From Pseudodesulfovibrio mercurii (GTDB taxonomy: Bacteria; Desulfobacterota; Desulfovibrionia; Desulfovibrionales; Desulfovibrionaceae), in NCBI RefSeq assembly GCF_000189295.2, contig NC_016803.1, positions 3,450,001 to 3,482,000 of the forward strand: a DNA stretch of 32,000 bases, read 5' to 3'. A program made the translations under genes and the position numbers. The first letter of the stretch is position 1; each line of letters opens with the position of its first letter. The notes beneath the pieces are model-generated. The model saw only the letters and a list, made by a program, of their open reading frames with translations. It had not been told where the DNA came from and did not search any database. This document shows positions 4,272-23,362 of this stretch, one piece after another.

Positions 4272-4967
4272 TCACTCCGTTTCGTGGGCGGCGGCCAGGC
4301 CGTCGTGGTCGAGGATGCGGATGTTCCGGCCCGAGGCCTCGATGAGGCGGCGGCGTTTGAACTTCTGGATGACGCGGGACAGGGTCTCCGGGCTGGTGCC
4401 GACGATGCGGGCCATCTCGGTGTGGGAGATGTGCAGGGAGAAGGGGTCGCCGGGGCGGGCGGCGCAGCATCCCTCGGAGTGCTGGAGGAAACAGGCGATG
4501 CGCTTCTGGGTGCCGTGCAGGGCCAGGGACTCCACGAGGTTCATGGTTTCCAGCAGTCTGCCCGCCAGGGTCTGCATGATCTTGAGCAGGAGGATGGGCT
4601 GGCGCCGGGCCAGGTCCTCCATGTCCTCGGACGGGATGCCCGCCACAAGGCTCTTTTCCAGGGCGGCCACGTCCACGGGATAGGGCCGGTCCGTGAAGGC
4701 CGAGCAGAAGCAGAAGGGCTGGCCCGCCTCCACCAGATAGAGGATCTGCTCCTTTCCGTCCGGGGTGCTGCGGAAGATCTTGGCCCGCCCGGACAGGACG
4801 ACGAAGAAGGCCTGGGTCTCGTCGGACCGGCTGATGACCCGTTCGCCGGGTTCGTAGCGGCTGAGCCGGGCGCGGCTGGCCAGGGCCATGACCGCCTCGT
4901 CCTCAAGGCCCGAAAAGAGGGGGGTTTTTCGCAGCAGGCGGAAGGTGTCCATGACAATTTTTCCCAT
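4272..4967 (-). CDS. Crp/Fnr family transcriptional regulator (cNMP-binding-like domain plus C-terminal HTH)
   Basis: 231-aa ORF. The N-terminal beta-roll region resembles the cNMP-binding fold (FSGLEDEAVMALASRARLSRYEPGERV...FFVVLSGRAKIF). The C-terminal HTH is HTEMARIVGTSPETLSRVIQKF, with an FNR-type E--SR recognition-helix motif. The start may be Met1 (4967) or Met6 (4952). Confidence 0.9.
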   Translation of the reverse strand: MGKIVMDTFRLLRKTPLFSGLEDEAVMALASRARLSRYEPGERVISRSDETQAFFVVLSGRAKIFRSTPDGKEQILYLVEAGQPFCFCSAFTDRPYPVDVAALEKSLVAGIPSEDMEDLARRQPILLLKIMQTLAGRLLETMNLVESLALHGTQKRIACFLQHSEGCCAARPGDPFSLHISHTEMARIVGTSPETLSRVIQKFKRRRLIEASGRNIRILDHDGLAAAHETE

Positions 4968-5062: not shown

Positions 5063-5971
5063 ATGACAATTTCCCGCAGAGGATTTTTGGGAGCGTTGGG
5101 GGTCGCGGGGGCGGTCTCGGCGGTGCCCGGAAATGCGCAGGCGTGGGAATCCAAGGCGCCGCCCGATCCGTTCGGCTGCCTGGTGGACCTGTCCCGGTGC
5201 GTGGGGTGCAGGAAGTGCGAACAGGCTTGCAAGGAGGTCAACGACCTGCCCGAGCCCGCCGTGAAGTTCGACGACCTGACCGTGCTCGACGCCAAGCGGA
5301 GGCCGGACCAGAACGCGTTCACGGTGATCAACCGGTACTATCCGGGGCGCATCGACGACCGCGACAAGCTGGCGCCGACCTTCGTCAAGGTGCAGTGCAT
5401 GCACTGCCAGGACCCGGCCTGCGTCTCGGCCTGCATCACCGGGGCCCTGACCAAGAAGGAAAACGGGGCCGTGCACTACGACGTGAACAAGTGCATCGGC
5501 TGCCGCTACTGCATGGCCGCCTGCCCCTTCGAGATCCCGGCCTACGAGTACGACAAGCCCATCCTGCCCAGGGTGCGCAAGTGCACGTTCTGCTTCGAGC
5601 GCATCTCCAAGGAGGGCGGCAAGCCCGGCTGCGCGTCCATCTGCCCGGTGGAGGCCATCACCTTCGGACGGCGGGGCGAGCTGCTCAAGCTGGCCCGCGG
5701 GCGCATCGAGGGCGATCCCGGCAAGTACATCGACCACATCTACGGGGAGCACGAGGTGGGCGGCACCAGTTGGCTGTACATCTCCAACGTGCCCTTCGAG
5801 AAGGTCGGCTTCCAGACCCTGCCGACCCGGCCCATGCCGCAGACCACGGAGACCATCCAGAGCGCGCTGTTCAGCTACCTGTGGTCCCCCCTGGCCCTGT
5901 TCGGGGTCCTCGGGGCGGTCATGGGCGCGACCTCGCGCAAGCACAACAAGGAGGGCGGTGATGACGCATAA
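5063..5971 (+). CDS. Tat-exported 4x[4Fe-4S] ferredoxin-type subunit (NrfC/HybA/HmcB/PsrB family) with a C-terminal membrane anchor
   Basis: ORF 5045..5971. The likely start is the second ATG (5063), after AAAGGAGGAA, giving the twin-arginine signal [13 protein letters not shown]...AQA. Four Cys clusters are present ([40 protein letters not shown]...CASICP). The hydrophobic C-terminus is [20 protein letters not shown]. Confidence 0.9.
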
Positions 5972-7124
5972 GCCCCAACCCGTGGACCGGCCCTTCTGGA
6001 CGCCCGGCGTGCTGGTCATGCTGGCCCTGATGATCGCGGCCGCCCTGACCCTCGTCGTGCGCTACACCTACGGGCTGGCCGCCGTGACCAACCTGAACAA
6101 CCACTACCCGTGGGGCATCTGGATCGGCCTGGACGTGGCCTCGGGCGTGGCCCTGGCCGCGGGCGGCTTCACCACCGCCTTCCTGGCGCACATCCTGGGC
6201 CGCCACTACTACGAGGCCGTGACCCGGCCCGCGCTGCTGACCGCAGCCCTCGGCTACACCTTCGTGGCCCTGGCCGTGTTCTTCGACATCGGCCGGTCCT
6301 GGGCCATCTGGAAGCCGATCGTCTACCAGAACCATACCTCGGCCCTGTTCGAGGTGGCCATGTGCGTGATGACCTACGTGACCGTGCTGTGGATCGAGTT
6401 CATCCCGGTCCTGGCCGAGCGGCTGGGCGGGAAGATCAAGCTCCTGGCCTTCCTGGACCGCATCCTGGACAAGACCATGTGGGTCTTCATCATCCTCGGG
6501 GTGGTGCTGTCCTGCATGCACCAGTCCAGCCTGGGCACCCTGATGGTCATCGCGCCGACCAAGACGTCGCCCCTGTGGGCCACGCCGCTGCAACCGCTGC
6601 TGTTCCTGACCTCGGCCTTCGCCGTGGGCTATCCCATGGTCATCGTGGAGACGACCATCGCCACCTCCTCCCTCAGGCTGGAGTCGGAGATGAACGTGCT
6701 CTCGCCGCTGTCCAGGATCACCATCCTGCTGCTCGGCGTGTACATGGCCCTCAAGGTCGGGGACCTGATCTCGCGCGGGGCGTACACGACCCTGCTGGAC
6801 GGCTCGGCCCAGAGCAACTCCTTCCTGGTGGAGGTGGGGCTCGGGGTGATCCTGCCCTGGCTCATGCTGCTCGTCCCGGCGGTGCGCCGCTCGCGCAGGT
6901 GGCTGTTCATCGCGGCCCTGCTCATCGTCTCGGGCGTGATGCTCAACCGGTTCAACGTGTTCGTGGTTTCCTTCAAGGCCCCGTATGCGAACTACCCGTA
7001 CTACCCGGCCATCGGCGAGATACTCGTCACCGCCGGAGCCGTGGCCACGATCTTCTTCCTCTACCGGCTGATTGTGACCTGGTTCCCGGTGCTTTCCGCC
7101 CAACGACAGGAGGTTTCCCAATGA
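5958..7124 (+). CDS. NrfD/PsrC/HmcC-family integral membrane quinone-interacting subunit
   Basis: 388-aa polytopic membrane ORF with multiple hydrophobic helices and NrfD-family-like sequence ([24 protein letters not shown]). It overlaps the upstream gene by 14 nt and the downstream gene by 4 nt (ATGATGA), so the three genes are translationally coupled. Confidence 0.88.
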
Positions 7125-9286
7125 TGAGGGAGATGAAGAGACTCGGGTGGCTGGCCATCGTGGTCGCGGCCGTGGTCCTGGCGGGGCTGACGCCCTCCCG
7201 GGCCGCCACCGCGCCCGGCGCGGCCGCCGAACCCCCGGCCAAGTCCCGCAAGGACCTGACCCCCATGCCCGAGGGCTGGTCGCCCGCCGACGAGGTCAAG
7301 GCGGAGAAGGTGGCCCGCGAGGCCTACCCGTTCGTGGAGAAGGTCCTCAAGGAGGACCTGGTCCTGCGCCAGCAGCGGCTGCGCAAGCTAGGCATCGGGC
7401 CCAAGGACATCAAGCACAGCTACTTCCTGCTCGACAGTCCGCTGGTGGACACCTACGAGCGCAAGTACGAGCCCGTGCGGTTCATGCATGCCAAGCATGC
7501 GGCCGCCCTGGGCGGCGACTGTGCCTCCTGCCACCACTACCGCCCCGAGGACCCCAAGGCCTCGGAGACCGTGGCCTGTCGTTCCTGCCACCAGGACTCC
7601 TTCTCGGCCGAGCATCCCGAACGCATCGGGCTGAAGGCCGCCTACCACATGCAGTGCATGAACTGTCATGAGAAGATGAAGAAGGGTCCGGTCAGCTGCG
7701 AAGGCTGCCACACCAAGCGCCCGGTGGACCACAAGGAGCTGGTCAAGCTCCCGGAGAACCCCACCCCGCAACAGGTGACCCAGGAATGCCTGCGCTGCCA
7801 CGAGCAGGCGGGCGAGGACATGCTCGACTCGGCCCATTGGCTGTGGCGCGGCCCGTCCCCGTACACGGTGGAACACAGACAGAGCGTCATGTCCGGAAAG
7901 GGGACCACGACGCTCAACAACTTCTGAATATCCCCCATCAGCAACGAGGCTCGTTGCACATCATGCCATGCGGGATACGGTTGGAAGGACTCCACCTTTG
8001 ACTTCAAGAATATGAACAACCTCGACTGCCTGGTCTGTCACGACACCACGGGCAGCTACAAGAAGGCCCCGCCCGCGGCGGGCATGCCCGACCCCAAGGT
8101 GGACCTGCTCTACGTGGCCGGGAACGTCGGCCCCACCAGCCGCAAGACCTGCGGCGCCTGCCACTTCAGCGGCGGCGGGGGCGATGCGGTCAAGCACGCG
8201 GACATGTCCTCGGAACTGTACTGGCCGGACCGCAACTGCGACGTCCACATGGGCGGGTACAACTTCGAGTGCACGGAGTGCCACAAGACGCGCAACCACA
8301 AGATATCGGGCAGGTCCACCTCGGCCCCGGTGGCCGAAGGTTCCCGCGCCTGCGAGGACTGCCATACCTCCAAGCCTCACTACGGCGAGACCCTGCTCGA
8401 TCATCACCTGAACAAGCACTGCGAGACCGTGGCCTGCAACACCTGCCACTCGCCCATCTACTCCAAGTGCACCCCCACCAAGACGTGGTGGGACTGGTCC
8501 ACCACCGGCGACAAGGAGCGCAAGGTGGGCAAGGACAAGTACGGCAAGCCCGACTACAACTGGATGAAGGGCGACTTCCGCTGGGGCGAGTCGGTCAAGC
8601 CCGAGTACGCCTGGTACAACGGGTTCATGCGCCGGCTGCTGCTCGGCGACGTCATCAACCCCGAGGCCAAGGGCTTCAAGTCCGGCGAGCACCTGACCGA
8701 CGAGCAGAAGGCGAACATGGTGAAGACCAACATCACCGAGCCCATCGGTTCCATCGGCGACCCGCACTCGCGGATCACGCCGTTCAAGATCATGTCCGGC
8801 ATCCAGCCTGCCGACGCCAAGTACCGGTACCTGCTCATCCCGCACCTGTATCCGTACAACAAGGATGACAAGACCGCCTACTGGAAGGGCGCCGACTGGC
8901 AGACCGCCTTCAAGGAGGGCATGAAGAAGGCCAACCTGGCCTACAGCGGCGATTACATGTGGGTGGCCACGGACATGTACTGGCGCATCGAGCACGAGGT
9001 TATGCCCAAGGAGCACGCCCTGTCCTGCGTGCAGTGCCACGACAGCCTCAAGGGCGAAAAGACCTGCGACCGCTGCCATCAGGATACGCGCAACATCAAG
9101 TTCCGCGAACTGACGGAAAAGGGCGCGGACTTCGAGCTGCTCAAGATGATGGGCCGCGACGTGGGCGACCTGATCGGCCAGACCGACTACATCGACTTCA
9201 GGAAGCTCGGCTACAAGGGCGACCCGATCCTCTACGGCGGACGGTTCACCCAGCTGCCGCTCGGCCAGGGGCCGGACAAGAAGTAG
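7121..9286 (+). CDS. Periplasmic multihaem cytochrome c with 13 CXXCH motifs: a c3-like tetrahaem module fused to an octahaem tetrathionate reductase (OTR)-family module. An in-frame UGA at 7925-7927 is a probable selenocysteine codon
   Basis: ATG 7121 follows AGGAGG, and the signal peptide is [31 protein letters not shown] pieces 7121..7927 and 8012..9286 are in the same frame. The 84-nt gap translates without stops as ISPISNEARCTSCHAGYGWKDSTFDFKN and contains a haem motif. Motifs before the UGA: CASCH, CRSCH, CMNCH, CEGCH, CLRCH. Motifs after it: CTSCH, CLVCH, CGACH, CTECH, CEDCH, CNTCH, CVQCH, CDRCH. If the UGA is a real stop, this locus is a pseudogene or a split gene. Confidence 0.75.
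7941..7957 (+). other. Candidate bacterial SECIS hairpin downstream of UGA 7925-7927
   Basis: GCAACGA-GGC-TCGTTGC: a perfect 7-bp stem with a GG-containing apical loop. The stem begins 13 nt after the UGA and the loop 20 nt after it. Flanking CAT...ATG could extend the helix. This spacing and loop resemble known bacterial SECIS elements such as E. coli fdhF. Confidence 0.6.
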
Positions 9287-9312
9287 GCGCGAGACTGCGC
9301 AACCGACAACCG

Positions 9313-9350
9313 GGCCCGGCGTCTTCTGACGCCGGGCCTTTCTCTTTGTT
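9313..9350 (+). terminator. Rho-independent terminator of the FeS/NrfD/cytochrome operon
   Basis: GGCCCGGCGTC-TTCT-GACGCCGGGCC (11-bp perfect stem) followed by TTTCTCTTTGTT, 27 nt after the cytochrome stop. Confidence 0.8.
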
Positions 9351-9361: not shown

Positions 9362-9778
9362 CTACGGGGTCACGTGCAGGTCCAGGACAGCGTCGATGAG
9401 CGGTTTGGCCTTGACCCCGCCGCAGCTCGACTTGGAGACCTCGTTGAGCAGGATGATGACCGTGTACTCGCCGGGGACGGCAAAGGTCACGGTGGTCTCG
9501 GGATAGCCGGGCCGGACCTTGGGCTTGTCGCCCTCGGGCCGGTTCGGGAACTCCAGGTTCACGGCGGTGTAGGCCCCGGCCGGGAACCGGTAGCCGTTGA
9601 GGTCGAAGACGACCTTGACCGGCTGGCCGACCTTGGGCGCGCCGTCCAGGTGGACCCGGCCGCCGGGCACCGAGGTGTGCAGGGCGTCGGCCAGGGCCGG
9701 GCCGGACAGGAGCGCGGTCCAGGCCAGGGCCAGGACGGCGCAGGCCGCGAACAGGGTGGGGAGGGTGCGCTTTTTCAT
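9362..9778 (-). CDS. Small secreted hypothetical protein (138 aa, Sec signal peptide)
   Basis: This is the C-terminal part of ORF 9362..11263. From the ATG at 9778 it reads MKKRTLPTLFAACAVLALAWTALLSGPALA-DALHT..., a clear signal peptide, followed by beta-strand-rich sequence. I recognise no family. The upstream 495 aa of the listed ORF is a shadow of the + strand regulator gene. Confidence 0.6.
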   Translation of the reverse strand: MKKRTLPTLFAACAVLALAWTALLSGPALADALHTSVPGGRVHLDGAPKVGQPVKVVFDLNGYRFPAGAYTAVNLEFPNRPEGDKPKVRPGYPETTVTFAVPGEYTVIILLNEVSKSSCGGVKAKPLIDAVLDLHVTP

Positions 9779-11308: not shown

Positions 11309-11875
11309 ATGGCGGACCAGACAGACATTCGTGACCAGGCGCGGGCCCTTCGGGACTTCTTCGCGTCGCGCGACGCAACGGACCTGAGGCGCACGGCGCT
11401 CGCCGTTTCCGGACTCTTTCACCGAGAGCTTGCGCCGGACACCGACTGGACCGGCGCGGAGTACGACTTCAACCGGCTCTTTGTCGGGCCCATGGCCGTC
11501 CCGGCCCCGCCCTACGCCTCGGCCTACCAGGTGGAGCCCGCGCTCATGGGCGGGCCGACCCTGGACGTGCGCGAGGCCTACCGCGCCCTGGGACTCCGAG
11601 TCCCGGACCAGGGGCGCACCCCGGACGATCACCTGGCCTTCGAGCTGGACCTGGCCGCGGCATTGCCGGGTCCTGGCGAGGGAGCGGCGGACGACCCGGT
11701 CCCGGCCGAGGTCCGGGAGTGGCTCATGGGCGAACACCTGCCCGGCTGGGTCCCGGCCTTCATCGGGGCCGTGGAGGCGCAGCCGGACGTGTCCGCGCCG
11801 GTGCGCATGGCCGTGGCGGCCCTGGGCGGCTGGCTCGAATCGATCCGGCCCCCGGCAGGGGCCGGCCAGGCATAG
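11309..11875 (+). CDS. TorD/DmsD-family redox enzyme maturation chaperone
   Basis: 188-aa ORF preceded by GGAGGTGAAAC. It carries family-typical motifs (EYDFNRLFVGP, PPYASAY, DHLAFELDL) and sits immediately upstream of a Tat-dependent molybdoenzyme gene. Confidence 0.8.
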   Translation: MADQTDIRDQARALRDFFASRDATDLRRTALAVSGLFHRELAPDTDWTGAEYDFNRLFVGPMAVPAPPYASAYQVEPALMGGPTLDVREAYRALGLRVPDQGRTPDDHLAFELDLAAALPGPGEGAADDPVPAEVREWLMGEHLPGWVPAFIGAVEAQPDVSAPVRMAVAALGGWLESIRPPAGAGQA

Positions 11876-11908
11876 GCAACCTTTCAACGTGATCTGGAGG
11901 AGGATCAT

Positions 11909-14152
11909 ATGACGAAACAACGTATGTTCGGCAGACGGCGATTCCTGCAAGGGGCGGCCGCGGCGGGCGCGGCGGCCATGCTGCCGTGTTCCCTGCTGGT
12001 GCCCGATCAGGCCCGCGCGGCCGCTTTCGAGGAGGGCGACTACCAGGTCTTCCGCAACGCCTGCCCGCGCAACTGCTACGACACGTGCAGCATCAAGACC
12101 TACGTCAGGGACGGGGTCGTCCAGTTCATCGAGGGCGCGCCCGAGTCCACCTTCACCAAGGGCGGCCTGTGCGTGAAGGGCTACAGCTACACGCGGCGGC
12201 CCTACAGCCCGGACCGGGTCAAGTACCCCATGGTCCAGGACGGCCGCCGGTCCGGCAAGTGGCGGCGGGTGTCCTGGGACGAGGCCCTGGACATGATCGC
12301 CAGGAAGATGCTCCAGCTGAAAGAGGAGGACGGCAGCCTGCTCGGCCTGGGCATGACCAAGTATTCCGGCAATTTCGGCATCACCAACTACGGCGTGGAA
12401 GGGCTCATGTCCTCGCTCGGCTACACCACCCGCTTCGTGGGCACCCCGTGCTGGCCCGCGGGCATCGACGCCCAGAACTACGACATGGGCAACATGTGGT
12501 GCAACGACCCCGAGGACATGGTCAAGGCGCGCTATATCATCGTCTGGGGCGCGAACCCGGCCTGGTGTTCGGTCCACTCCATGAAATACATCATGGAGGC
12601 CAAGCGGCGCGGGGCCAAGATCGTGGTCGTGGACCCCGTCTTCACCCAGACCGCGGCCAAGGGCGACGTGTTCTGGCAGCCCCGGACCGCCTCGGACGGG
12701 GCGCTGGCCCTGGGCATGGCCCGGCACATCCTGGACAAGGGGCTGGTGGACGAGGACTTCGTCCGCAATCACGGCCTCGGCTTCGACGAGTTCGCCGACT
12801 ACCTGCGCAACAACGTGACCGTTGAGTGGGCCGCCGAACAGTCCGGCATCCCGGCCCGCGAGATTATGGAGGTGGCCGAGGAGTTCGCCTCGGCCGACCC
12901 GGCGACCATCTGGATCGGCTACGGCATGCAGCGCCACACCAACGGCGGGGCGTCCGTGCGCTCCATCGACGCCCTGGTGGCCATGACCGGCAACATCGGC
13001 AAGGAGGGCGGCGGCGCGCGCTACGGCCATCTCCAGACCTGGGGCTTCAACTACCACGCCCTGATCCAGAAGCAGCCCGAGGGGTCCAAGGGATTCCTGG
13101 GAGGCGCGGCCAAGGGCGAGTTCGACTTCACCAGCGGCTCCGGGGCGAGCTACACCGACCGCACCGTGAACATCAACAAGACCGCCCAGGCCATCCTGGA
13201 CACCGCGGACCCGGCCATCCGCATGCTCTGGGTCTCCTGCAAGAATCCCTTCGGCCAGGATTTCGACCGGCCCAAGCTGGAAAAGGCCTTCGACAAGCTG
13301 GAGATGGTCGTCACCGTGGACCAGTTCTTCAACGAGACCGTGGCCAACTCCGACATCGTCCTGCCGGTGACCACCCTGTTCGAGGAATGGACGGTCAACG
13401 TCTCCTACTGGCACTACTGGCTGTCCATCAACGAGCAGGCCATCAAGCCCATGTTCGAGACCAAGTCCAACATCGAGATCGCGGCGGCCCTGTCCGGGAA
13501 GATGAACGAGCTGGCCCCCGGCTCCTGCACCTTCCCCCGGGACATCGACACCAAGGAGTGGATGGAGAAGGAGTTCAACCAGTCCATCTACGACATGTTC
13601 GGCATCGACGACTGGACCGCCCTGCGCAACGGGCCGGTCAAGGCCAGGCTCAAGTCTTCGGCGGCGTGGAGCGACAAGACCTTCGCCACCCCGTCGGGCA
13701 AGTACGAGTTCAAGTCCGAACTGTGCGCCGGAAATGGACACAAGGCCCTGCCCGAGTTCAAGTCCGGGCGCGAGAACTACGACAAGTTCCGCCTGCTGAC
13801 CCCGCACACCAAGTTCGGCCTGCACTCCCAGTTCGTCAACCTGGACTGGATGCACGAGTACGACAAGGAACCCTTCATCTACATGCACCCCAAGGCGGCC
13901 GCCGGGAAGGGCATCGCGGACCTGGACACGGTCCGGGTGTTCAACAAGGTGGGCGAGCAGAAGGCCAGGGTCAAGCTGACCGACAACGTGGCCGAGGACT
14001 GTCTGCTCATGTACGAGGCATGGTTCGGCCGGGGCAATGACTTCAACGTCCAGAACCTGGTGGACGACGAGTCCGCCGACATGGGCGCGTTCAAGGCCGG
14101 GGCTCCGGGCGTGGCCATCCACGACCAGTTCGCCGACATCGAGCGGGCGTAA
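11909..14152 (+). CDS. Tat-exported molybdopterin (bis-MGD) oxidoreductase catalytic subunit, DMSO reductase superfamily; substrate unknown
   Basis: 747 aa. Twin-arginine signal MTKQRMFGRRRFLQGAAAAGAAA...ARA. N-terminal FeS-0 motif CPRNCYDTCSIK...C. RBS GGAGGAGG. A long molybdopterin-binding body follows (IIVWGANPAW, KIVVVDPVFTQTA). Confidence 0.88.
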   Translation: MTKQRMFGRRRFLQGAAAAGAAAMLPCSLLVPDQARAAAFEEGDYQVFRNACPRNCYDTCSIKTYVRDGVVQFIEGAPESTFTKGGLCVKGYSYTRRPYSPDRVKYPMVQDGRRSGKWRRVSWDEALDMIARKMLQLKEEDGSLLGLGMTKYSGNFGITNYGVEGLMSSLGYTTRFVGTPCWPAGIDAQNYDMGNMWCNDPEDMVKARYIIVWGANPAWCSVHSMKYIMEAKRRGAKIVVVDPVFTQTAAKGDVFWQPRTASDGALALGMARHILDKGLVDEDFVRNHGLGFDEFADYLRNNVTVEWAAEQSGIPAREIMEVAEEFASADPATIWIGYGMQRHTNGGASVRSIDALVAMTGNIGKEGGGARYGHLQTWGFNYHALIQKQPEGSKGFLGGAAKGEFDFTSGSGASYTDRTVNINKTAQAILDTADPAIRMLWVSCKNPFGQDFDRPKLEKAFDKLEMVVTVDQFFNETVANSDIVLPVTTLFEEWTVNVSYWHYWLSINEQAIKPMFETKSNIEIAAALSGKMNELAPGSCTFPRDIDTKEWMEKEFNQSIYDMFGIDDWTALRNGPVKARLKSSAAWSDKTFATPSGKYEFKSELCAGNGHKALPEFKSGRENYDKFRLLTPHTKFGLHSQFVNLDWMHEYDKEPFIYMHPKAAAGKGIADLDTVRVFNKVGEQKARVKLTDNVAEDCLLMYEAWFGRGNDFNVQNLVDDESADMGAFKAGAPGVAIHDQFADIERA

Positions 14153-14160
14153 GGAGAACG

Positions 14161-14721
14161 ATGATGAAAAAGCAATACGCATTCCTGGTCGACACCGAGC
14201 GGTGCATCGGCTGCTTCACCTGCGCCATGGCCTGCCGCAACTACTACCATCAGGTGGAGGGCGTGGTCTGGCGTCAGGTCCACCCCCTGAGCGAGGAGAT
14301 CTACCCCCACCGCGAGCGGGCCTTCCTGTCGCTCTCCTGTAACCACTGCGAGAACCCGGCCTGCCTGAACGTCTGCCCGGTGGAGGCGTACACCAAGCGG
14401 GAGGACGGCGTGGTCGTCCACCATCAGGAGAAGTGCATCGGCTGCGGCAACTGCATCCGCTCCTGTCCCTACGGCGCGCCCAAGTACAACCCGGTGGAGA
14501 AGCGCGCCGAGAAGTGCAGCCTGTGCCACGAGCGCCTGGACGCCGGGCTCAAGCCCGCCTGCGTGCAGGCCTGCCCCGTGGAGGCCCTGCAACTCATCGA
14601 CCTGGCCGACTTCGAGGAGACCAACGAGGTCCAGTACCCGGCGGGCTACCCCCGGATGGAGAGTCTCAACCCGTCCACCCGGTTCGTCCTGCCCCAAACC
14701 CCCAAGATGGTCAGGAGGTAG
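14161..14721 (+). CDS. DmsB-type 4x[4Fe-4S] electron-transfer subunit
   Basis: 186 aa with four ferredoxin-type Cys clusters (CIGCFTCAMAC, CNHCENPACLNVCP, CIGCGNCIRSCP, CSLC...CVQACP). No signal peptide is present, which is consistent with hitch-hiking on the A subunit. Confidence 0.88.
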   Translation: MMKKQYAFLVDTERCIGCFTCAMACRNYYHQVEGVVWRQVHPLSEEIYPHRERAFLSLSCNHCENPACLNVCPVEAYTKREDGVVVHHQEKCIGCGNCIRSCPYGAPKYNPVEKRAEKCSLCHERLDAGLKPACVQACPVEALQLIDLADFEETNEVQYPAGYPRMESLNPSTRFVLPQTPKMVRR

Positions 14722-14723
14722 TC

Positions 14724-15524
14724 ATGCAATCCATGGAAATTCCGCTCGTCCTGTTCACCGTGTTCTCCCAGGCGGCCATCGGCCTGACCCTGATGCGCGT
14801 GGTCCGCACCACGGCCGACGGGGACGGGGCCGAGTCCGGCGACGCCCGCAGCGAATGGCGGCTCATCGCCGGGCTCATGATCCTGGGCATGTTCGGCTCC
14901 CTGTTCCACCTGGGCCATCCCCTGTCCGCGCCCACGGCCCTCAAGCACCTGGGCACGGCCTGGCTCAGCCGCGAGGTCTTGTTCGCCGGGCTGTTCACCG
15001 GCGTGACCGTGCTGGCCGTGCTCCTGGCGGGCAAGGCGGGCAGGCCCGTGCTGGCCTGGCTCGGCACGCTGCTCGGCCTGGGCGTCATCGTGTCAGCGGG
15101 CATGACCTACGCGCCACCGGCCCTGCCCGCCCTGAACAACGCCCTGCCGTTCAGCTTCTTCCTGACCTCGGCCGTGATCCTCGGCTCGGGCTTCGGCAGC
15201 TGGTTCGCGGGCAGCGAGCGCGCCCCGCTCATGACCCGCATCTTCACCACGGCCCTGGTGGTCGGCCTGGTCCTGAACCTGGTCGCCCCGTGCGTCTGGC
15301 TGTCGGGCGGCGCGGTCATGCGCATGACCGCCCAGGCCTGGCTGGGCTCGGGCTTCTATTGGGCGCACGTGGCCGTGCTGATCGCCTGCCTGGGCGTGGT
15401 CTGGAAGTTCCGGACCATCCCGGCCGGGCTGCCGCTCCTGGCCCTGCTCGGCGAACTGGCCGGACGCGCCGGGTTCTTCGCCGACACCATCCACGCCGCC
15501 GCCAACATGGGCGGCCTGTACTAG
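14724..15524 (+). CDS. DmsC-type membrane anchor subunit
   Basis: ATG 14724 follows AGGAGG, within ORF 14433..15524. The sequence MQSMEIPLVLFTVFSQAAIGL... is a polytopic hydrophobic protein of about 266 aa, matching the DmsC N-terminal pattern. Confidence 0.8.
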   Translation: MQSMEIPLVLFTVFSQAAIGLTLMRVVRTTADGDGAESGDARSEWRLIAGLMILGMFGSLFHLGHPLSAPTALKHLGTAWLSREVLFAGLFTGVTVLAVLLAGKAGRPVLAWLGTLLGLGVIVSAGMTYAPPALPALNNALPFSFFLTSAVILGSGFGSWFAGSERAPLMTRIFTTALVVGLVLNLVAPCVWLSGGAVMRMTAQAWLGSGFYWAHVAVLIACLGVVWKFRTIPAGLPLLALLGELAGRAGFFADTIHAAANMGGLY

Positions 15525-15662: not shown

Positions 15663-17732
15663 TCAGCCCTCGATGTGGTAGCGCTCCATCTTGGCGTACA
15701 GGGTGTTGCGCCCGATGCCCAGCGCCTTGGCCGTCTTGCTGATGTTCCCGTCGTGGAAGTCCAGGGCCTCGCGGATGGCGTTGGCCTCGCGCTGCTTGAG
15801 CAGGAAGCCCTTGCCCTTGGCGTGCCCGTTGCCGGAGACGGCCTTGCCGCTGGTCCGTTCCAGGAGGTAGTGGGGCAGGTGCTCGGGCAGGAGCAGGTCC
15901 CCGGTCAGGTTGTTGGCCGCGTACTCCAGGCAGTTGATCAGCTCGCGGACGTTGCCGGGCCATTCGTGGCCGGCGAGCAGCTCCCTGGTCTCGGCGGCGA
16001 TGGCCGGGCAGGGGATGCCGAAGGAGTCGCACAGCCGCCTCAGGTGGTACTCGGCCAGCAGGGTCACGTCGTTGCCGCGCTCCCGCAGGGGCGGGATGGC
16101 GATGGTGACCACGTTGAGCCGGTAGTAGAGGTCCTCGCGGAACCGCCCCTGGTCCACCAGCTCGCGCAGGTTCTTGTTGGTGGCGGCCAGGATCTTCACG
16201 TCCACGGGCAGGGGGCTGGTGCCGCCCACCGGGACCACGGCCCGCTCCTCCAGGGCCCGGAGCAGATTGACCTGCTGGGACATGGGCATTTCGGAGATTT
16301 CGTCCAGGAAGAGCACGCCCTTGTCCGCCTTCTGGAACTTGCCCACCCGGCCGCGCTTGACCGCGCCGGTGAAGGCGCCCTCGCGGTAGCCGAACAGCTC
16401 GCTCTGGACCAGCTCCTCGGAGAACGCGCCGCAGTTGACGGCCACGAAGGGCTGTTTGGCCCTGGGACCGGCCTGGTGGATGCCCCGTGCGAACAGCTCC
16501 TTGCCGGTGCCGGACTCGCCGGTCAGCAGGATCGTGGACGGGGTCCGGGCTGCGTTGGCCGCCTGGCGGATGACCTGACGCATGGCCGAGCTGCCGTGGA
16601 GCACGTGCTCGAAGCCCTTGACCTCCTCGGGCTCCGCAGGCTTGCGGGGCGAGGCGGCCGGACCCGTGGTGAACTGCCTGGAGCGCTGGGTCTCGCTGAC
16701 CGTGACGATGGTGTCCAGCCACGCGCCGCTGGCGCTGAAGGTCGGCATGACCCGGATGTACAGGCCGGGGTTGACCAGGCACTTGACGATGACCGGCTCG
16801 CACAGGGAGGCGTTCTTGGCCTGGGCCAGGTACGGACCCATGTCGAAGAGTTCCTCGGCCTTGCGGCCGCGCAGGGCGCCGCCGGGACGGCACAGGAGCA
16901 GCTCGGCGGTGTTGTTGGCGCTGGTGATCCTGCCGGACTTGTTCAGGAACAGCACGCCGGTCATGACCGAGTTGAACATGGAGGAGAACAGGGAGGCCAT
17001 CTGGCCTTCGAGTTCGGAACAATAGAGGCGGCTCAGGTTCTGTTCCAGGGCGCGGGCCGCGTGCAGGACCAGGTCCATGGCGCCCGAGTGGTCGGACGAG
17101 GTCGGACCGGAGACGTCGAAGCAACCCCAGACGTTGCCGCGCGGGTCCAGGATCGGAGCGGCGGTGCAGTTCCAGCTGTGGTGGGACTCGCAGAAGTGCT
17201 CCGAGGCGAAAACCTGCATGGGGCGACCCGTGGCCAGGGCGGTGCCGATGGCGTTGGTGCCCACGCAGGACTCGGACCAGTTGGCGCCGGGGCCGAAGTT
17301 CAGCTTGTCCGCCTCGCGCAGGACGTCCATGTCGCCGCAGGTGCGGGCCACGCGGGCGTCGGCGTTGACGATGGTCATGAGCAGCCCCTTGCCCTTGATG
17401 ACCTCGTAGGCCGTGGATTCGACCTCGCCGCAGATCTTTTCCAGGGTGGTGGTGAACTGCTCCAGCTGGTTCATGGGCAGAAAGTCCCAGCAGCTGCGCG
17501 GGGCCGGATCAACGGCCATGTCCTTGCAGCGTTGCCAGGAGTCCAGCAGGGCCCGGTCCACGTTTTTGTTTTTCAGGCGTTTGCCTTCGACGAACTGTTT
17601 CCAGTTCGAGTAACTCAGTTGGGCGTTCCGCTGTTTATGGGCGCAGGATATGGGCAGCGTCACCGCCGCATCCGGCGCGTGCGGGTCCCGTCGTATTTCG
17701 AATCCGTTTCCATCTCTGAGGAGCAGGTGCAT
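15663..17732 (-). CDS. acoR: Sigma-54-dependent transcriptional activator, AcoR type (GAF-like sensor, PAS, AAA+ and Fis HTH domains)
   Basis: 689 aa. The N-terminus has AcoR-like GAF sequence (SWQRC...GTNAIGTALATGRPMQV...EHFCESHHSWNCTAAPI). The AAA+ core carries GESGTGKELFARGIH and the GAFTGA motif. The C-terminal HTH is ISKTAKALGIGRNTLYAKM. The gene is divergent from an operon that carries a -24/-12 promoter. Confidence 0.9.
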   Translation of the reverse strand: MHLLLRDGNGFEIRRDPHAPDAAVTLPISCAHKQRNAQLSYSNWKQFVEGKRLKNKNVDRALLDSWQRCKDMAVDPAPRSCWDFLPMNQLEQFTTTLEKICGEVESTAYEVIKGKGLLMTIVNADARVARTCGDMDVLREADKLNFGPGANWSESCVGTNAIGTALATGRPMQVFASEHFCESHHSWNCTAAPILDPRGNVWGCFDVSGPTSSDHSGAMDLVLHAARALEQNLSRLYCSELEGQMASLFSSMFNSVMTGVLFLNKSGRITSANNTAELLLCRPGGALRGRKAEELFDMGPYLAQAKNASLCEPVIVKCLVNPGLYIRVMPTFSASGAWLDTIVTVSETQRSRQFTTGPAASPRKPAEPEEVKGFEHVLHGSSAMRQVIRQAANAARTPSTILLTGESGTGKELFARGIHQAGPRAKQPFVAVNCGAFSEELVQSELFGYREGAFTGAVKRGRVGKFQKADKGVLFLDEISEMPMSQQVNLLRALEERAVVPVGGTSPLPVDVKILAATNKNLRELVDQGRFREDLYYRLNVVTIAIPPLRERGNDVTLLAEYHLRRLCDSFGIPCPAIAAETRELLAGHEWPGNVRELINCLEYAANNLTGDLLLPEHLPHYLLERTSGKAVSGNGHAKGKGFLLKQREANAIREALDFHDGNISKTAKALGIGRNTLYAKMERYHIEG

Positions 17733-17805
17733 GCCTTACCTCCGGACTGACACAAGAAATCTTTATGACCGCATGGTTTTTGTCCTCCAAGGGTAAAAAA
17801 CTGTC

Positions 17806-17828
17806 AAGTGTTCGATTTTTGAACGCTT
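17806..17828. promoter_or_regulatory. Candidate enhancer (UAS) site A: AAGTGTTCGATTTTTGAACGCTT (GTTC-N7-GAAC inverted repeat)
   Basis: A near-palindrome about 200 nt upstream of the predicted sigma-54 transcription start. It shares the GTTC-N7-GAAC core with site B. Confidence 0.4.
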
Positions 17829-17908
17829 CCAGGGAGCCAAAATAAGGATTAAGTTTTTTAAATCAGCGTGATGCGGTGTACTGGACAGGTTGGCGGAGAA
17901 AGGCCTCC

Positions 17909-17931
17909 AGTTGTTCATCCACCGAACACTT
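17909..17931. promoter_or_regulatory. Candidate enhancer (UAS) site B: AGTTGTTCATCCACCGAACACTT (GTTC-N7-GAAC)
   Basis: It has the same core and spacing as site A. CGAACACTT here is the exact reverse complement of AAGTGTTCG in site A. It lies about 95 nt upstream of the predicted start. Confidence 0.4.
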
Positions 17932-17990
17932 AGCCGGTACATACAGTAATATATACTGTTATCCGGCTTGAATCATTGACCTATGCCGCT

Positions 17991-18006
17991 TGGCACCAGC
18001 GTTGCA
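17991..18006 (+). promoter_or_regulatory. Sigma-54 (-24/-12) promoter TGGCAC-CAGCG-TTGCA
   Basis: An exact match to the TGGCAC-N5-TTGC consensus, 45 nt upstream of the E2 ATG and facing the operon. A sigma-54 activator gene is adjacent. Confidence 0.85.
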
Positions 18007-18050
18007 ATCCCTCCGGCAACGTATGCAAAAAAAACCAGGAGGACTTGGTT

Positions 18051-19388
18051 ATGGCTCATGATGTGATTATGCCCAAGTGGGGCCTGACCATGAAAGAAGG
18101 TAAGGTCGCACGCTGGCTCAAGGGCGAAGGGGACCCGGTCGAAGCCGGGGAGCCTCTGTTCGAAGTCGAGACCGACAAGATCACCAACTCGGTCGAGGCG
18201 CCCGCCAGCGGCGTCCTGGCCAAAATCATCGTCCCCGAGGGGGACGTGGCCCCGATCCAGGCCGTTTTGGCCATCATCGCCGCCCCGGGCGAAGCCGTCG
18301 ATGCGTCGGCTCCCGCCGGTGCGGCCAAACCCGCGGCCGAAGCGGCCCCCGCCGCCGCTGCCGACAAGCCCGCCGCCGCTGCCCCGGCCGGGGACGGCAA
18401 GTTCGTTCCGGCCATGCCCGCAGCGCGCAAGCTGGCCAAGGAACTGGGCGTGGACCTGTCCACGGTGACCGGTACCGGCAAGGACGGCAAGATCACCGCC
18501 AAGGACGTCCAGGACGCCGCTGATTCCGCCTACGCCGGGATCAACGCCAGCCCCAAGACCATTGACTTCGCCCGCAAGCAGGGCGTGGACCTCAGCCAGG
18601 TGACCGGCACCGGCGAGGACGGCAAGATCACCAAGGCGGACATCCTGCGGGCCATGAACCCGTCGGCCGCCCAGCCCGCCGCCGGGCCTGCGCCCGCCAA
18701 GGACACCATCGTGCCCATGGAAGGCGTGCGCAAGCTCGTCGCGGACAACATGCAGGCCAGCCTGCAGAACGCGGCCCAGCTGACCGTGTTCGTCGAGCTC
18801 GACGTCACCGAGATGGTCGGCCTGCGCGCCAAGCTGCTCGAGCGCAACAAGCGCAACGCGGACTACCGTGTGTCGTACAACGACATCATCGCCTACGCCG
18901 TGTGCCGCGCACTGAAGCGTCACCCGGTCATGAACTCCACCCTCCAGGCGGACGGCATCCATCTGCATCCGCACGTCAATCTCGGCATCGCCGTGTCCAT
19001 CGACAAGGGGCTCATCGTGCCCAACGTCAAGGAAGCGGACACCTTCGGCCTGGAAGAACTCAAGGACAAGGTTCGCGACGCGGCCGGTCGGGCTCGCAAG
19101 GGCGGCCTGAACATGGACGAGATCACGGGCGGCACCTTCACCATCAGCAACGTGAGCATGCTCGGCGTGGACGGTTTCACGCCCATCCTCAATCCGCCGG
19201 AGACCGGCATCCTGGGCGTCGGCCGCATCGTCGAGAAGCCCGCGGTGCACAACGGCGAGATCGTCGCGCGCCAGATGATGACCCTGTCCCTGACCTTCAA
19301 CCATATGACCACGGATGGGGCTCCGGCCATGGCCTTCCTGCGCGAGCTGGGAGACATGCTGGAAATGCCCGGCCTGATGATCGTCTAG
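18051..19388 (+). CDS. acoC: Dihydrolipoamide acyltransferase (E2) of an acetoin/2-oxo acid dehydrogenase complex
   Basis: ATG 18051 follows AGGAGG. The lipoyl domain carries EVETDKITNSVEAP. There are Ala/Pro linkers and two peripheral-subunit-binding-like repeats (PAARKLAKELGVDLSTVTGTGKDGKITAKDV and DFARKQGVDLSQVTGTGEDGKITKADI). The catalytic domain ends ...SLTFNHMTTDGAPAMAFL. Confidence 0.9.
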   Translation: MAHDVIMPKWGLTMKEGKVARWLKGEGDPVEAGEPLFEVETDKITNSVEAPASGVLAKIIVPEGDVAPIQAVLAIIAAPGEAVDASAPAGAAKPAAEAAPAAAADKPAAAAPAGDGKFVPAMPAARKLAKELGVDLSTVTGTGKDGKITAKDVQDAADSAYAGINASPKTIDFARKQGVDLSQVTGTGEDGKITKADILRAMNPSAAQPAAGPAPAKDTIVPMEGVRKLVADNMQASLQNAAQLTVFVELDVTEMVGLRAKLLERNKRNADYRVSYNDIIAYAVCRALKRHPVMNSTLQADGIHLHPHVNLGIAVSIDKGLIVPNVKEADTFGLEELKDKVRDAAGRARKGGLNMDEITGGTFTISNVSMLGVDGFTPILNPPETGILGVGRIVEKPAVHNGEIVARQMMTLSLTFNHMTTDGAPAMAFLRELGDMLEMPGLMIV

Positions 19389-19398
19389 GGGGCACCCC

Positions 19399-19824
19399 AT
19401 GGCGCTGAAACGGTTTGCTATCGAACTCGGCTATGCCGCCGACCTGCACGGCGAGGACATGACCAAGGCCGCCGTCAGGGCGGTGCGCGACGCCGTGTCC
19501 CGCATATGCCTGTGCGGCATCGTGGAGATCTGCGGCCGTGATCAATTCCAGGGTGTGCACGTCCACGCGGACGTGGCCGTTCCGAATCCCGACGGCGTGG
19601 ACCGCGACGCGGTGCTCGCCTGCATCCCCATCGGCGAAAAGACCCTGACCGTGGTCCCCGGCGGCATGAGCGTGCCGGGCATCGAGGTCCCCTGTTTCGC
19701 CCCGGGCGTGAGCAACATCGTCGCGGCCTGTGCGGCCCTGACCGTCTCCATCGAGACGGACCTGGCCGCGGGAGCGGATGGATCGAAAAACCAGGCCTGC
19801 GGATGCGCCGCCAAGGCCAAATAA
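19399..19824 (+). CDS. Lin0512-family protein (uncharacterised conserved family)
   Basis: 141 aa. The N-terminus FAIELGYAADLHGEDMTKAAVRAVRDAV fits the family signature GxGxDxHG as I remember it (GYAADLHG, one Gly replaced by Ala). It is tightly packed between the E2 and E1 alpha genes, with gaps of 10 and 18 nt. Confidence 0.6.
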   Translation: MALKRFAIELGYAADLHGEDMTKAAVRAVRDAVSRICLCGIVEICGRDQFQGVHVHADVAVPNPDGVDRDAVLACIPIGEKTLTVVPGGMSVPGIEVPCFAPGVSNIVAACAALTVSIETDLAAGADGSKNQACGCAAKAK

Positions 19825-19842
19825 CCTACAGGAGAGAAAGCA

Positions 19843-20802
19843 ATGGCTCTCAGCAAGAAGACATTGGTTCACATGTACGAAACCATGAACAAAATTCGTT
19901 TGTTCGAGCAGAAGCTCCAGGAATTCTTCGCCGCCGGCGAGATTCCGGGTTTCGTGCACCTCTATATCGGTGAGGAAGCCGTGGCCACCGGCGCCTGCTC
20001 GGCCCTGACCGACGCGGACATGATCACCTCCACCCACCGCGGCCACGGCCACCTGCTGGCCAAGGGCGGCGACCTGAAGCTGATGATGGCCGAAATCTTC
20101 GGCCGCTCCACCGGCTACTGCAAGGGCAAGGGCGGCTCCATGCACATCGCGGACCTCAACCTCGGCATCCTCGGCGCCAACGGCATCGTGGGCGGCGGCG
20201 GTCCCCTGGCCGTGGGCTCGGCCCTGGCCTCGAAATACAAGCAGACCAAGGACGTGACCGTCTGCTTCTTCGGCGACGGCGCCTCCAACCAGGGCACCAC
20301 CCAGGAAGCCCTGAACGCGGCCTCCGCCTGGAAGCTGCCCCTGGTCTTCGTCAACGAGAACAACGGCTACGGCATCTCCTGCCCGCAGTGCAAGTCCATG
20401 GCCGTGGTCGACATCGCCGACCGCGCCGCCGCCTATGACATGCCCGGCGTGGTGGTGGACGGCAACGACGTGCTGGCCGTGTACGAGGCCGTCACCGAGG
20501 CCGTCAAGCGCGCCCGCAAGGGCGAGGGCCCCTCGCTCATCGAGTGCAAGACCTACCGCTGGCGCGGCCACTTCGAGGGCGACGCCTGCACCTACCGCTG
20601 CACCGAGGAACTGGAAGAGTGGATGGCCAAGGATCCCATCCCCCGGTTCGAGGCCAAGCTTGTCGAGGGCAAGACCCTGACTCAGAACGAAGCGGACAAG
20701 ATCAAGGAAAGCATCGCCAAGGACATCGACGAAGCCGTGGCCTTCGCCAAGGAAAGCCCGATGCCCAAGACCAGCGCGCTCATGGACGACGTCTACGCCT
20801 AG
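19843..20802 (+). CDS. acoA: TPP-dependent acetoin dehydrogenase E1 component, alpha subunit
   Basis: 319 aa. It closely resembles AcoA-type E1 alpha sequences (PGFVHLYIGEEAVATG, TSTHRGHGHLLAKGGDL, MAEIFGRSTGYCKGKGGSMHIAD, CFFGDGASNQG, VFVNENNGYGIS). Confidence 0.92.
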   Translation: MALSKKTLVHMYETMNKIRLFEQKLQEFFAAGEIPGFVHLYIGEEAVATGACSALTDADMITSTHRGHGHLLAKGGDLKLMMAEIFGRSTGYCKGKGGSMHIADLNLGILGANGIVGGGGPLAVGSALASKYKQTKDVTVCFFGDGASNQGTTQEALNAASAWKLPLVFVNENNGYGISCPQCKSMAVVDIADRAAAYDMPGVVVDGNDVLAVYEAVTEAVKRARKGEGPSLIECKTYRWRGHFEGDACTYRCTEELEEWMAKDPIPRFEAKLVEGKTLTQNEADKIKESIAKDIDEAVAFAKESPMPKTSALMDDVYA

Positions 20803-20850
20803 GCGGCGATTCACCTTTCTCGAATCCTTAAAAATTCAATGGAGAGTACA

Positions 20851-21822: not shown

Positions 21823-21833
21823 TCCCATAGCCT

Positions 21834-21866
21834 GGCGGGAGGGCGGCTTCGGCCGCTCTCCCCGCC
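21834..21866 (+). other. Intercistronic GC-rich stem-loop with a TTCG (UUCG) tetraloop between acoB and acoX
   Basis: GGCGGGAGGGCGGC-TTCG-GCCGCTCTCCCCGCC. The stem is imperfect but long. It lies in the only sizeable gap (65 nt) inside the operon. Confidence 0.45.
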
Positions 21867-21887
21867 GCATTTCATGAGGGCGCCCCA

Positions 21888-22877: not shown

Positions 22878-22892
22878 TCGCAAGGAGCAATC

Positions 22893-23201
22893 ATGAGCAA
22901 CGCACTGAAGGCCGCGTTCATCTTCGTCGCACCGGGCGCCGATCCCGCGCGCAACCGCAACTGGGTCAAGACCGAGGCCGTGGAGCTCGTGGCCGTGGCC
23001 GTCAAGGACTATGCCCAGGCCGAGGCCGTGGCCCGTGAACTGGTGGAGAAGGAAGGCATCGCCGCCATCGAGCTGTGCGGCGGTTTCGGCGCGGCCGGCA
23101 CCGCGCGCATCGCCGCGGCCGTGAACGTCCCGGTGGGCGTGGTTCGTTTCGACATCCACCCCGGCCTGAACAACGTCAGCGGCGACACCCTGTTCGGCTA
23201 G
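22893..23201 (+). CDS. Small conserved-looking hypothetical protein (102 aa), last gene of the aco-like operon
   Basis: An ORF with RBS AAGGAG, 15 nt after acoX. Its composition is coding-like. I cannot confidently name a family. Confidence 0.6.
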   Translation: MSNALKAAFIFVAPGADPARNRNWVKTEAVELVAVAVKDYAQAEAVARELVEKEGIAAIELCGGFGAAGTARIAAAVNVPVGVVRFDIHPGLNNVSGDTLFG

Positions 23202-23215
23202 CCGAAACAGCGACA

Positions 23216-23255: not shown

Positions 23256-23281
23256 CGGGGGGTGCGAACCCCTTCCGTCGG

Positions 23282-23345: not shown

Positions 23346-23362
23346 GGAATGGTTCGGGGGGA

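Follow-up and report, generated by a model that had tools for sequence, protein, structure and literature searches.

The crystal structure of the octahaem tetrathionate reductase (OTR) of Shewanella oneidensis (SO4144; PDB 1sp3) dates from 2004, yet what this cytochrome does physiologically has never been settled (PMC12949373). It is soluble, comprises ∼440 amino acids (aa), stands alone and lacks a dedicated quinol dehydrogenase; CymA has been proposed as its electron donor (PMC12949373). In vitro, OTR reduces tetrathionate, nitrite and hydroxylamine (PMC4911364, PMC12949373). The known catalytic multihaem cytochromes that are encoded with NrfC/NrfD partners, those of the Nrf and Mcc/Sir systems, are quinol-dependent reductases (PMC8076601). 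Here, an OTR-family cytochrome with partner genes of this kind is described from a 32,000-nucleotide (nt) stretch of Pseudodesulfovibrio mercurii DNA (NC_016803.1, positions 3,450,001–3,482,000 of the forward strand; hereafter the window, in which all coordinates are given). The module comprises an iron–sulfur (FeS) protein, an NrfD-family membrane protein and a 13-haem cytochrome in which selenocysteine (Sec) is predicted to occupy the position of an OTR cysteine (Table 1).

The cytochrome contains exactly 13 CXXCH motifs, four in an N-terminal c3 domain, eight in the OTR module and one in a C-terminal extension. A preliminary description of the locus had placed nine motifs in an OTR-like module; nine do lie outside the c3 domain, but the ninth belongs to the extension. 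The tetrahaem c3 domain proposed in the same description is borne out by Pfam (Cytochrom_CIII, PF02085, 6.6e-11; Cytochrom_c3_2, PF14537). Its four CXXCH motifs (aa 134–197) are complemented by four further invariant histidines (His 123, 126, 138, 139, 157, 176, 183 and 197 in all), and in the PDB it is closest to the C-terminal c3 domain of HmcA (1h29 residues 443–512), NhcA and acidic c3. The domain also resembles TmcA.

The C-terminal module is assigned from sequence and a structure model to the OTR family, with Sec replacing one of the defining residues, Cys64. The module scored 479.6 bits against NCBIfam TIGR04315 (tetrathionate reductase family octahaem c-type cytochrome; cut-off 375), and a phmmer search matched it to residues 4–416 of the 1sp3 chain with E = 6.4e-114 and 197 of 404 aligned positions identical (49%). 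The eight CXXCH motifs of the module (aa 223–640) are colinear with those of Shewanella OTR. In that protein, Lys56 and the C74xxC77H78 motif have been assigned to haem II (PMC3769277); the equivalent lysine, Lys260, is conserved here and is the predicted haem II ligand. The fold is consistent with this assignment. An AlphaFold2 model, confident overall, was made on P0001, a Cys homologue 84% identical to the window cytochrome (predicted local distance difference test score, pLDDT, 82.6; predicted template-modelling score, pTM, 0.82), and Foldseek matched it to 1sp3 (TMt 0.85, E = 7e-41) and, in the c3 domain, to 3cao (TMt 0.67). No NCBIfam match of the cytochrome to NrfA or MccA was obtained. 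The window cytochrome differs from Shewanella OTR in the Sec at the Cys64 site, in the N-terminal c3 domain and in the one-haem extension, which lies beyond the end of the 1sp3 alignment (aa 641). The extension carries the 13th haem motif (C649–H653) and a conserved GYxGDP...GGRF sequence, with C649, C652, H653, G697, Y698, D701, P702 and R708 being invariant.

The single in-frame TGA codon of the cytochrome gene specifies residue 269. Counted in 1sp3 numbering, it lies 8 residues past Lys56 (K260 here) and precedes the C74xxC77H78 motif (C279–H283 here) by 10. One genome per species was scanned for relatives, yielding at least 587, and the best 80 loci were analyzed (L labels denote these species-level genome loci, and P labels denote protein-database entries). 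The codon at this site is TGA in 34 of the 80 loci, TGC or TGT in ∼39, and a Leu, Trp or other codon in a few. The TGA-bearing genomes span 50–85% protein identity, and the reading frame continues, open and conserved, before and after the TGA. A hairpin with a 7-bp stem and a GGC loop follows the codon. Of the 34 Sec-type genes compared, 33 share its 20-mer AGCAACGAGGCTCGTTGCAC exactly and one (L004) has a single loop change; the hairpin is absent from Cys-type genes. Six consecutive third-codon positions in the hairpin show no variation, whereas flanking third positions vary in 4–19 of the 34 genes. Because Sec and Cys form an exchange pair at the Cys64 position and the downstream hairpin is frozen, the TGA is read as a Sec codon, in agreement with the Sec-containing cytochrome that had been considered probable. 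The hairpin is a candidate Sec insertion sequence (SECIS) element, backed by conservation rather than by a model. In a neighbour-joining tree, the Sec forms compose one clade with scattered returns to Cys. No tRNA genes were found within the window.

The Sec form appears to be recognized in databases but unstudied, since in a 2026 review TIGR04315 is one of the selenoprotein families for which GenBank annotation is the sole source (PMC13188914). Because gene callers split Sec-type genes at the TGA, many entries in databases are cut short. P0080, P0104 and P0105 are 424–425-aa "octahaem" proteins whose start is an internal Met matching window position 8012. In L046, a TGG (Trp) codon is found at the Sec/Cys position (L046:6805–6807), the Sec-type downstream peptide ISTISNEARC is nevertheless kept, and the FeS and NrfD genes are located 3.5 kb upstream rather than adjacent; this TGG could reflect recent Sec loss, a decaying copy or a sequencing error.

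The FeS protein carries a twin-arginine (Tat) signal (RRGFLGALG), 16 cysteines that form four [4Fe-4S] motifs and a single C-terminal hydrophobic helix (aa 269–287) as a predicted membrane anchor. These features place it in the HybA/HmcB type and substantiate its earlier description as a Tat-exported tetra-cluster ferredoxin with a C-terminal anchor. Its NCBIfam scores were 352 bits for HmcB (cut-off 420) and 262.6 bits for HybA (cut-off 263, borderline), both short of the equivalog cut-offs. The membrane subunit scored 81.2 bits against Pfam NrfD (PF03916; cut-off 25.8), which upholds its NrfD/PsrC-type assignment, while the quinol interaction attributed to it is inferred. Hydropathy indicates ∼10 transmembrane helices, and cofactor motifs are absent. 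The subunit scored 335 bits against the HybB-type profile PRK10881 (cut-off 450), below the HybB equivalog level, and 263 bits against HmcC. Given these scores, neither the FeS nor the membrane protein is an equivalog of a named subunit. The membrane subunit is 35% identical to Escherichia coli HybB, and residues R89, Y99, E148, H184, D58, D109, S129, E133, K198, E291 and R329 are invariant in an alignment of HybB with seven module proteins. Replacement of R89, Y99, E148 or H184 in HybB impairs or lowers hydrogenase 2 (Hyd-2) activity, according to the review that cites this work (Lubek 2019, as cited in PMC8076601). The same review is the source of the list of conserved residues, both those tested in HybB and those proposed for quinone binding or the proton path. 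No [NiFe] hydrogenase genes were found among the window open reading frames (ORFs) scanned.

The three genes overlap on the plus strand at window 5063–9286, the positions originally given for them. The FeS gene starts at ATG 5063, 8 nt past an AGGAGG site. Of the two overlaps claimed, the one of 4 nt is confirmed (the cytochrome start, ATG 7121, lies within an ATGA overlap with the NrfD gene), but the one of 14 nt would require GTG 5958 as the NrfD start; the ribosome-binding site favours ATG 5961 and thus an 11-nt overlap with the FeS gene. A perfect palindrome, TTGATcgcgATCAA, which may serve as an FNR/CRP-type promoter box, is located 91 nt 5′ of the FeS start codon. The FNR-type box, the overlapping coding regions and the single terminator together predict that the three genes form one operon. 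No gene for a cytoplasmic CCG-type subunit (HmcF/TmcB) or a cytochrome b subunit adjoins it.

The regulatory arrangement is shared with relatives. Orthologues of the Crp/Fnr regulator occupy the same divergent position in L001–L003 (58–66% identity) and L041 (38%), and a TTGAC-N4-ATCAA or TTGAC-N4-CTCAA box is found 79–112 nt upstream in L001, L002, L003 and L041. The regulator gene and FNR-like box are thereby kept in the closest Desulfovibrionaceae relatives. In 33 other loci, a divergent sigma-54 activator with a PAS domain replaces the Crp/Fnr gene. Such dedicated regulators (Crp/Fnr with an FNR box; sigma-54 PAS activator) are typical of alternative-acceptor reductases. The 33 sigma-54-dependent activator genes, from loci within L010–L075 and including most Desulfobacterales loci, are found on the minus strand ∼2–4 kb upstream of the cytochrome. 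Several cysteines are present in the N-terminal PAS domain of the activator, which may sense the inducing signal.

In ∼70 of the 80 loci, the cytochrome gene is directly preceded by FeS and NrfD homologues, again in that order. The exceptions include four loci cut by contig ends and four short stand-alone OTR genes (L072, L074, L077 and L078), which lack both the c3 domain and FeS/NrfD neighbours. In 25 of 71 loci, NrfD and the c3–OTR cytochrome are encoded as one continuous ORF, and the stretch matching the cytochrome signal peptide forms a predicted eleventh transmembrane helix. The fused loci belong to a Cys-type Desulfobacterales subclade, one Myxococcota metagenome-assembled genome and Acidobacteriota. 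The fusion layout is also found in four independent representatives of 50%-identity clusters (P0122, P0127, P0128 and P0159). Because the two proteins are a single ORF in 25 loci, these natural fusions argue for a physical complex and, together with the conserved gene order, sustain the view that the cytochrome is hard-wired to an NrfCD-like module. P0032 (1043 aa, NrfD and cytochrome) was rejected as a fusion because the final helices are missing from its NrfD part and the junction resembles an assembly or frameshift artefact.

The module is common rather than rare, being found in Desulfovibrionaceae, Desulfobacterales, Acidobacteriota and Myxococcota. Its earlier characterization as unusual holds relative to characterized systems but not in frequency, as it is common in Desulfobacterota and Acidobacteriota. 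The module, which is uncharacterized, has database entries whose names are generic or misleading; to judge by the name of P0032 and the top NCBIfam matches, those of the partner genes seem to derive from Hyd-2 subunits (cytochrome b subunit, HybA). Among 50%-identity cluster representatives, the OTR module occurs alone (∼450–500 aa), fused to c3 (∼700 aa), fused to NrfD (∼1,100 aa), in tandem, and in proteins of up to 1,400 aa. From this variety of architectures, grafting of OTR onto other domains appears to be a theme of the family. P0121 (1000 aa) contains two complete OTR modules from a tandem duplication, and P0133 and P0147 (1429 aa) contain OTR modules inside very large multihaem proteins; one of these has C-terminal NrfH/NapC-like motifs and a transmembrane segment. 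An NrfD-fused, divergent Acidobacteriota group (L064–L067, L069, L071 and L073) keeps the Cys, with GK at the Lys56-equivalent position changed to SL, and looks like a subfamily with different active-site haem ligation. In L076 and L079, the haem II CXXCH motif is also lost. A protein with a metallo-beta-lactamase fold and two rhodanese domains (persulfide dioxygenase/sulfurtransferase-like) is encoded beside the module in three Sec-type loci (L011:8030–9583, L013:9357–10742 and L028:383–1759), which faintly suggests a tie to sulfur metabolism.

The module shares features with several described systems. Its resemblance to Shewanella OTR extends over the family profile, sequence identity, haem motif order, Lys56 and fold; it differs in its conserved partner genes, including the NrfD that is fused in some lineages. 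NrfABCD of E. coli and MccABCD/SirACD likewise combine an NrfD-type membrane protein, a four-cluster NrfC-type FeS protein and a periplasmic catalytic multihaem cytochrome. In these systems, however, catalysis is by NrfA or MccA instead of an OTR-family protein, and Nrf has an 8-helix NrfD/NrfC type of partner in place of the 10-helix HybB and anchored HybA/HmcB types of the window. Moreover, Nrf uses a separate pentahaem protein, NrfB, as its electron wire (PMC8076601), whereas the wire of the window module is fused to the enzyme, and the active site contains Sec. Closer relatives of the partner subunits are found in the Hmc, Nhc and Tmc complexes and in HybA/HybB of E. coli Hyd-2. The FeS and NrfD proteins best match HmcB/HybA and HybB/HmcC, respectively, the c3 domain is like the C-terminal c3 domain of HmcA/NhcA, and functional residues of HybB are kept, in line with the analogy to these complexes drawn at the outset. 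All scores of the window subunits are nevertheless below the Hmc/Hyb equivalog cut-offs, and the module lacks hydrogenase genes, HmcDEF or TmcB-type cytoplasmic subunits and NhcD. Its cytochrome also contains a catalytic module and not just electron-transfer haems.

The Ohc complex of Desulfovibrio is likewise encoded by three genes and faces the periplasm; it combines an octahaem cytochrome with an HmcB-like FeS protein (PMC4641369, PMC4287179). By their descriptions, the two are set apart by the membrane subunit, a haem-b protein in Ohc (OhcC) and a cofactor-less NrfD in the window, and by the gene order, which is ohcBAC in the former and FeS–NrfD–cytochrome in the latter. MccSep of Geobacter sulfurreducens (GSU2936/ExtKL family) is a c-type multihaem cytochrome with an essential Sec by its active-site haem (PMC13510729). 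This Sec is essential for polysulfide and selenite reduction, and nitrite is not a substrate (PMC13510729). MccSep belongs to an unrelated family, however, forms a pentahaem homotetramer with a Cys-ligated active haem, as opposed to the Lys ligand predicted here, and has no described NrfCD-type partner. Since the Hmc/Hyb cut-offs were not reached, hydrogenase and cytoplasmic Hmc/Tmc subunits are lacking and the Ohc membrane subunit differs, the whole FeS–NrfD–c3–OTR assembly corresponds, by sequence comparison, to no named complex. The literature search returned no description of a 13-haem (tridecahaem) cytochrome or of an OTR–NrfD (FeS–NrfD–c3–OTR) complex, and the module is not mentioned in a review of NrfD proteins (PMC8076601).

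With moderate confidence, the module is proposed to form a cytoplasmic-membrane, periplasm-facing respiratory complex that most likely acts as a menaquinol-dependent terminal reductase with a Lys-ligated haem and a selenolate site, because its architecture parallels those of the quinol-dependent NrfABCD and MccABCD/SirACD systems. The HybB-type 10-helix NrfD subunit would exchange electrons and protons with the menaquinone pool, and the electrons would be relayed by the four [4Fe-4S] clusters of the Tat-exported, anchored HybA/HmcB-like subunit. They would enter the cytochrome via its built-in tetrahaem c3 domain, the counterpart of the NrfB wire, possibly with help from the extra C-terminal haem. 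From there, they would travel through the eight haems of the OTR module to haem II, ligated by Lys260. Sec269, predicted to lie beside haem II in place of Cys64, would act as the selenolate nucleophile that attacks the substrate. The likeliest substrates would be inorganic compounds with an S–S bond or selenium, namely tetrathionate, polysulfide or elemental sulfur, thiosulfate and selenite. S–S sulfur intermediates and selenium oxyanions are favoured because the Sec/Cys pair indicates a redox-active nucleophile and because MccSep provides a precedent. Four elements of this scheme are inferred: electron flow away from quinol, the c3 domain as a wire, Sec as a catalytic residue and the identity of the substrate. 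An acidobacterial otr transcript increased 36-fold on tetrathionate addition to sediment microcosms (PMC8528874).

The proposal depends on the TGA being translated. If it were a true stop, the gene would be a pseudogene or split gene, and the cytochrome would not be one 13-haem protein. This is barely credible and effectively excluded by the comparative data: TGA is found at the one codon in 34 species-level genomes with Cys in others, the frame is open and conserved on either side, the 20-nt hairpin is frozen at synonymous sites in TGA genes only, and a downstream fragment would have no signal peptide. A member of the family has also been annotated as a selenoprotein by NCBI (PMC13188914). 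A true stop would accord with the splitting of such genes by gene callers, with the C-terminal fragments in the protein database and with the Rfam scans, in which no SECIS family was matched across the whole window (gathering scan) or at 7880–8030 (relaxed scan). The Rfam result also weighs against the terminal-reductase proposal itself, as do several other points. The hairpin, being invariant, shows no covariation. The predicted position of Sec269 near haem II is taken from its place in the sequence and from the description of the 1sp3 structure. The closest FeS and NrfD relatives (Hyd-2 HybAB, Hmc, Nhc and Qrc) are mainly quinone-reducing. In P. mercurii, tetrathionate may already be covered by a TtrBCA-like operon in the window. 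Shewanella ANA-3 can respire tetrathionate without otr, for which a role in reducing sulfite has been suggested instead (PMC12949373). The in vitro activities of OTR with nitrite and hydroxylamine exceed that with tetrathionate (PMC12949373, PMC10949509), and its physiological role is debated and unsettled (PMC12949373).

The same partner subunits could instead work in reverse, as an electron-input module of the Nhc/Qrc/Hyd-2 type whose HybAB-like part reduces menaquinone, with the c3 domain taking electrons from periplasmic type I cytochrome c3 (TpIc3; H2- or formate-fed) or the OTR site oxidizing a compound of low potential, for example sulfide or polysulfide. Such an arrangement would fit the families to which the FeS and NrfD proteins are closest, the likeness of the c3 domain to the C-terminal domains of HmcA/NhcA and to TmcA, which are TpIc3 acceptors in published models, and the retained HybB proton-path residues, which serve quinone reduction in Hyd-2 (PMC8076601). 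The lack of a cytoplasmic CCG/HmcF-type subunit is likewise a feature of the quinone-reducing Nhc and Ohc complexes (PMC4287179). It is considered unlikely, as the tetrathionate/thiosulfate couple, at +198 mV as quoted in PMC8528874, cannot drive menaquinone reduction and the reported OTR activities of any size are all reductive. A complete, conserved catalytic site (Lys ligand and Sec/Cys) would moreover be pointless for pure electron entry, and the inducible, dedicated regulators point to an acceptor-specific reductase. A different substrate for a quinol-dependent enzyme, namely nitrite or hydroxylamine, also appears improbable; in that case the module would replace or supplement NrfHA, as a reductase or detoxifier, and the Sec/Cys residue would have a secondary role. 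The active-site Sec/Cys exchange pair is the signature of a redox-active chalcogen nucleophile. NrfA-type nitrite reduction chemistry is not known to need a thiol or selenol. The parallel with the NrfABCD architecture is compatible with nitrite reduction, OTR enzymes are faster on nitrite and hydroxylamine than on tetrathionate in vitro (PMC12949373, PMC10949509), and in Thermosulfurimonas dismutans, where Otr adjoins a membrane "cytochrome b subunit", it has been put forward to fill the role of the missing nitrite reductase (PMC4911364). However, the otr transcript in sediment microcosms responded to tetrathionate (PMC8528874), and the sole characterized haem–Sec enzyme acts on polysulfide and selenite, not on nitrite (PMC13510729). 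Within the terminal-reductase reading, a more specific idea is put forward tentatively, as one that may well not hold: in sulfate reducers and sediment Acidobacteriota, the module is perhaps the natural setting of OTR, a menaquinol-driven, selenium-dependent reductase of S–S intermediates (tetrathionate, polysulfide or elemental sulfur) in which Sec beside the Lys-ligated haem would cleave the bond.

The dedicated quinol module, the natural NrfD–cytochrome fusions and the active-site Sec/Cys pair together point to membrane-coupled respiration and chalcogen-nucleophile chemistry, and they make the role of OTR directly testable. If the idea is true, the module would be the second independently evolved haem–selenolate sulfur reductase after MccSep and would help to settle OTR physiology. 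Reduction of sulfur intermediates by such a module would bear on cryptic sulfur cycling in sediments.

Table 1. Features of the module and its flanks in the P. mercurii window.
Feature	Position	Strand	Basis and remarks
Crp/Fnr-family transcription regulator	4272..4967	-	Divergent from operon; NCBIfam matches CRP, FtrB and Fnr, all below equivalog cut-offs
Putative FNR/CRP-type palindrome TTGATcgcgATCAA	4973..4986	.	Read from sequence; between operon and divergent Crp/Fnr gene
Periplasmic FeS subunit, 302 aa, HybA/HmcB-like	5063..5971	+	Pfam Fer4_11, TAT_signal; NCBIfam HmcB, HybA
NrfD/PsrC-family integral membrane subunit, HybB type	5961..7124	+	Pfam NrfD; alternative start GTG 5958
13-haem c-type cytochrome, putative selenocytochrome, 721 aa	7121..9286	+	Sec-type signal peptide, c3 domain, OTR module, C-terminal one-haem extension
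Tetrahaem cytochrome c3-like domain	7460..7720	+	aa ∼114–200; Pfam PF02085, PF14537
OTR-family octahaem module, predicted catalytic	7727..9046	+	aa 203–642; TIGR04315, 1sp3 match
Lys260 codon, equivalent of Lys56 of Shewanella OTR	7898..7900	+	1sp3 alignment; invariant in alignments A1 and A3
In-frame TGA, predicted to be read as Sec 269	7925..7927	+	Aligns with Cys64 of Shewanella OTR
Candidate SECIS element	7940..7959	+	Hairpin GCAACGA-GGC-UCGUUGC (7941–7957), begins 16 nt after UGA
C-terminal extension with 13th haem motif	9047..9283	+	aa 643–721; absent from Shewanella OTR
Predicted terminator	9312..9339	.	GC-rich hairpin (12 bp) then T-rich run; after third gene, between convergent genes

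Further respiratory genes are found in the window. The region 26380–32000 (plus strand) contains a two-component system (a HisKA_3 kinase and a NarL/LuxR-type regulator) followed by three ttr-like genes, for a TtrB-like FeS protein (290.6 bits, best match), a TtrC/NrfD-like protein and a TtrA-like molybdoenzyme. Only the first 417 aa of the last protein are encoded before the window end (480.9 bits over profile positions 5–389). This region, located ∼20 kb from the OTR module, is predicted to be a canonical tetrathionate-reductase-like (TtrBCA-like) operon.

The region 11309–15524 (plus strand) encodes a TorD/DmsD-like chaperone, a DmsA-type molybdoenzyme, a DmsB-type FeS protein and a hydrophobic protein (start ∼14727) that has the appearance of a DmsC-type anchor and matched no NCBIfam family. 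A LuxR-type regulator gene, whose real start is ∼9851, lies ahead of this unit. By its gene content, the unit is a putative third periplasm-facing respiratory reductase within the window. A functional link between the OTR module and this molybdoenzyme was considered and rejected, as the unit is a complete TorD and DmsABC-type set with its own anchor. The DmsA-type molybdoenzyme shares just 27% identity with the one encoded after the module in 11 Desulfobacterales loci.

A small gene convergent with the operon (9362–9778, minus strand) encodes a 138-aa protein with a clear signal peptide and a GC fraction at third codon positions (GC3) of 0.96; it has no counterpart near the module in the 80 related loci. 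A sigma-54 activator gene (15663–17735, minus strand) is followed by a 2-oxoacid dehydrogenase cluster with genes for E2, a Lin0512-family protein, E1 alpha, E1 beta, an NAD-kinase-like protein and a DUF6506 protein, and a lipoate-protein ligase is encoded at 24380–25429 (minus strand). The gene set of window 15663–25429 is unusual for a sulfate-reducer-like genome.

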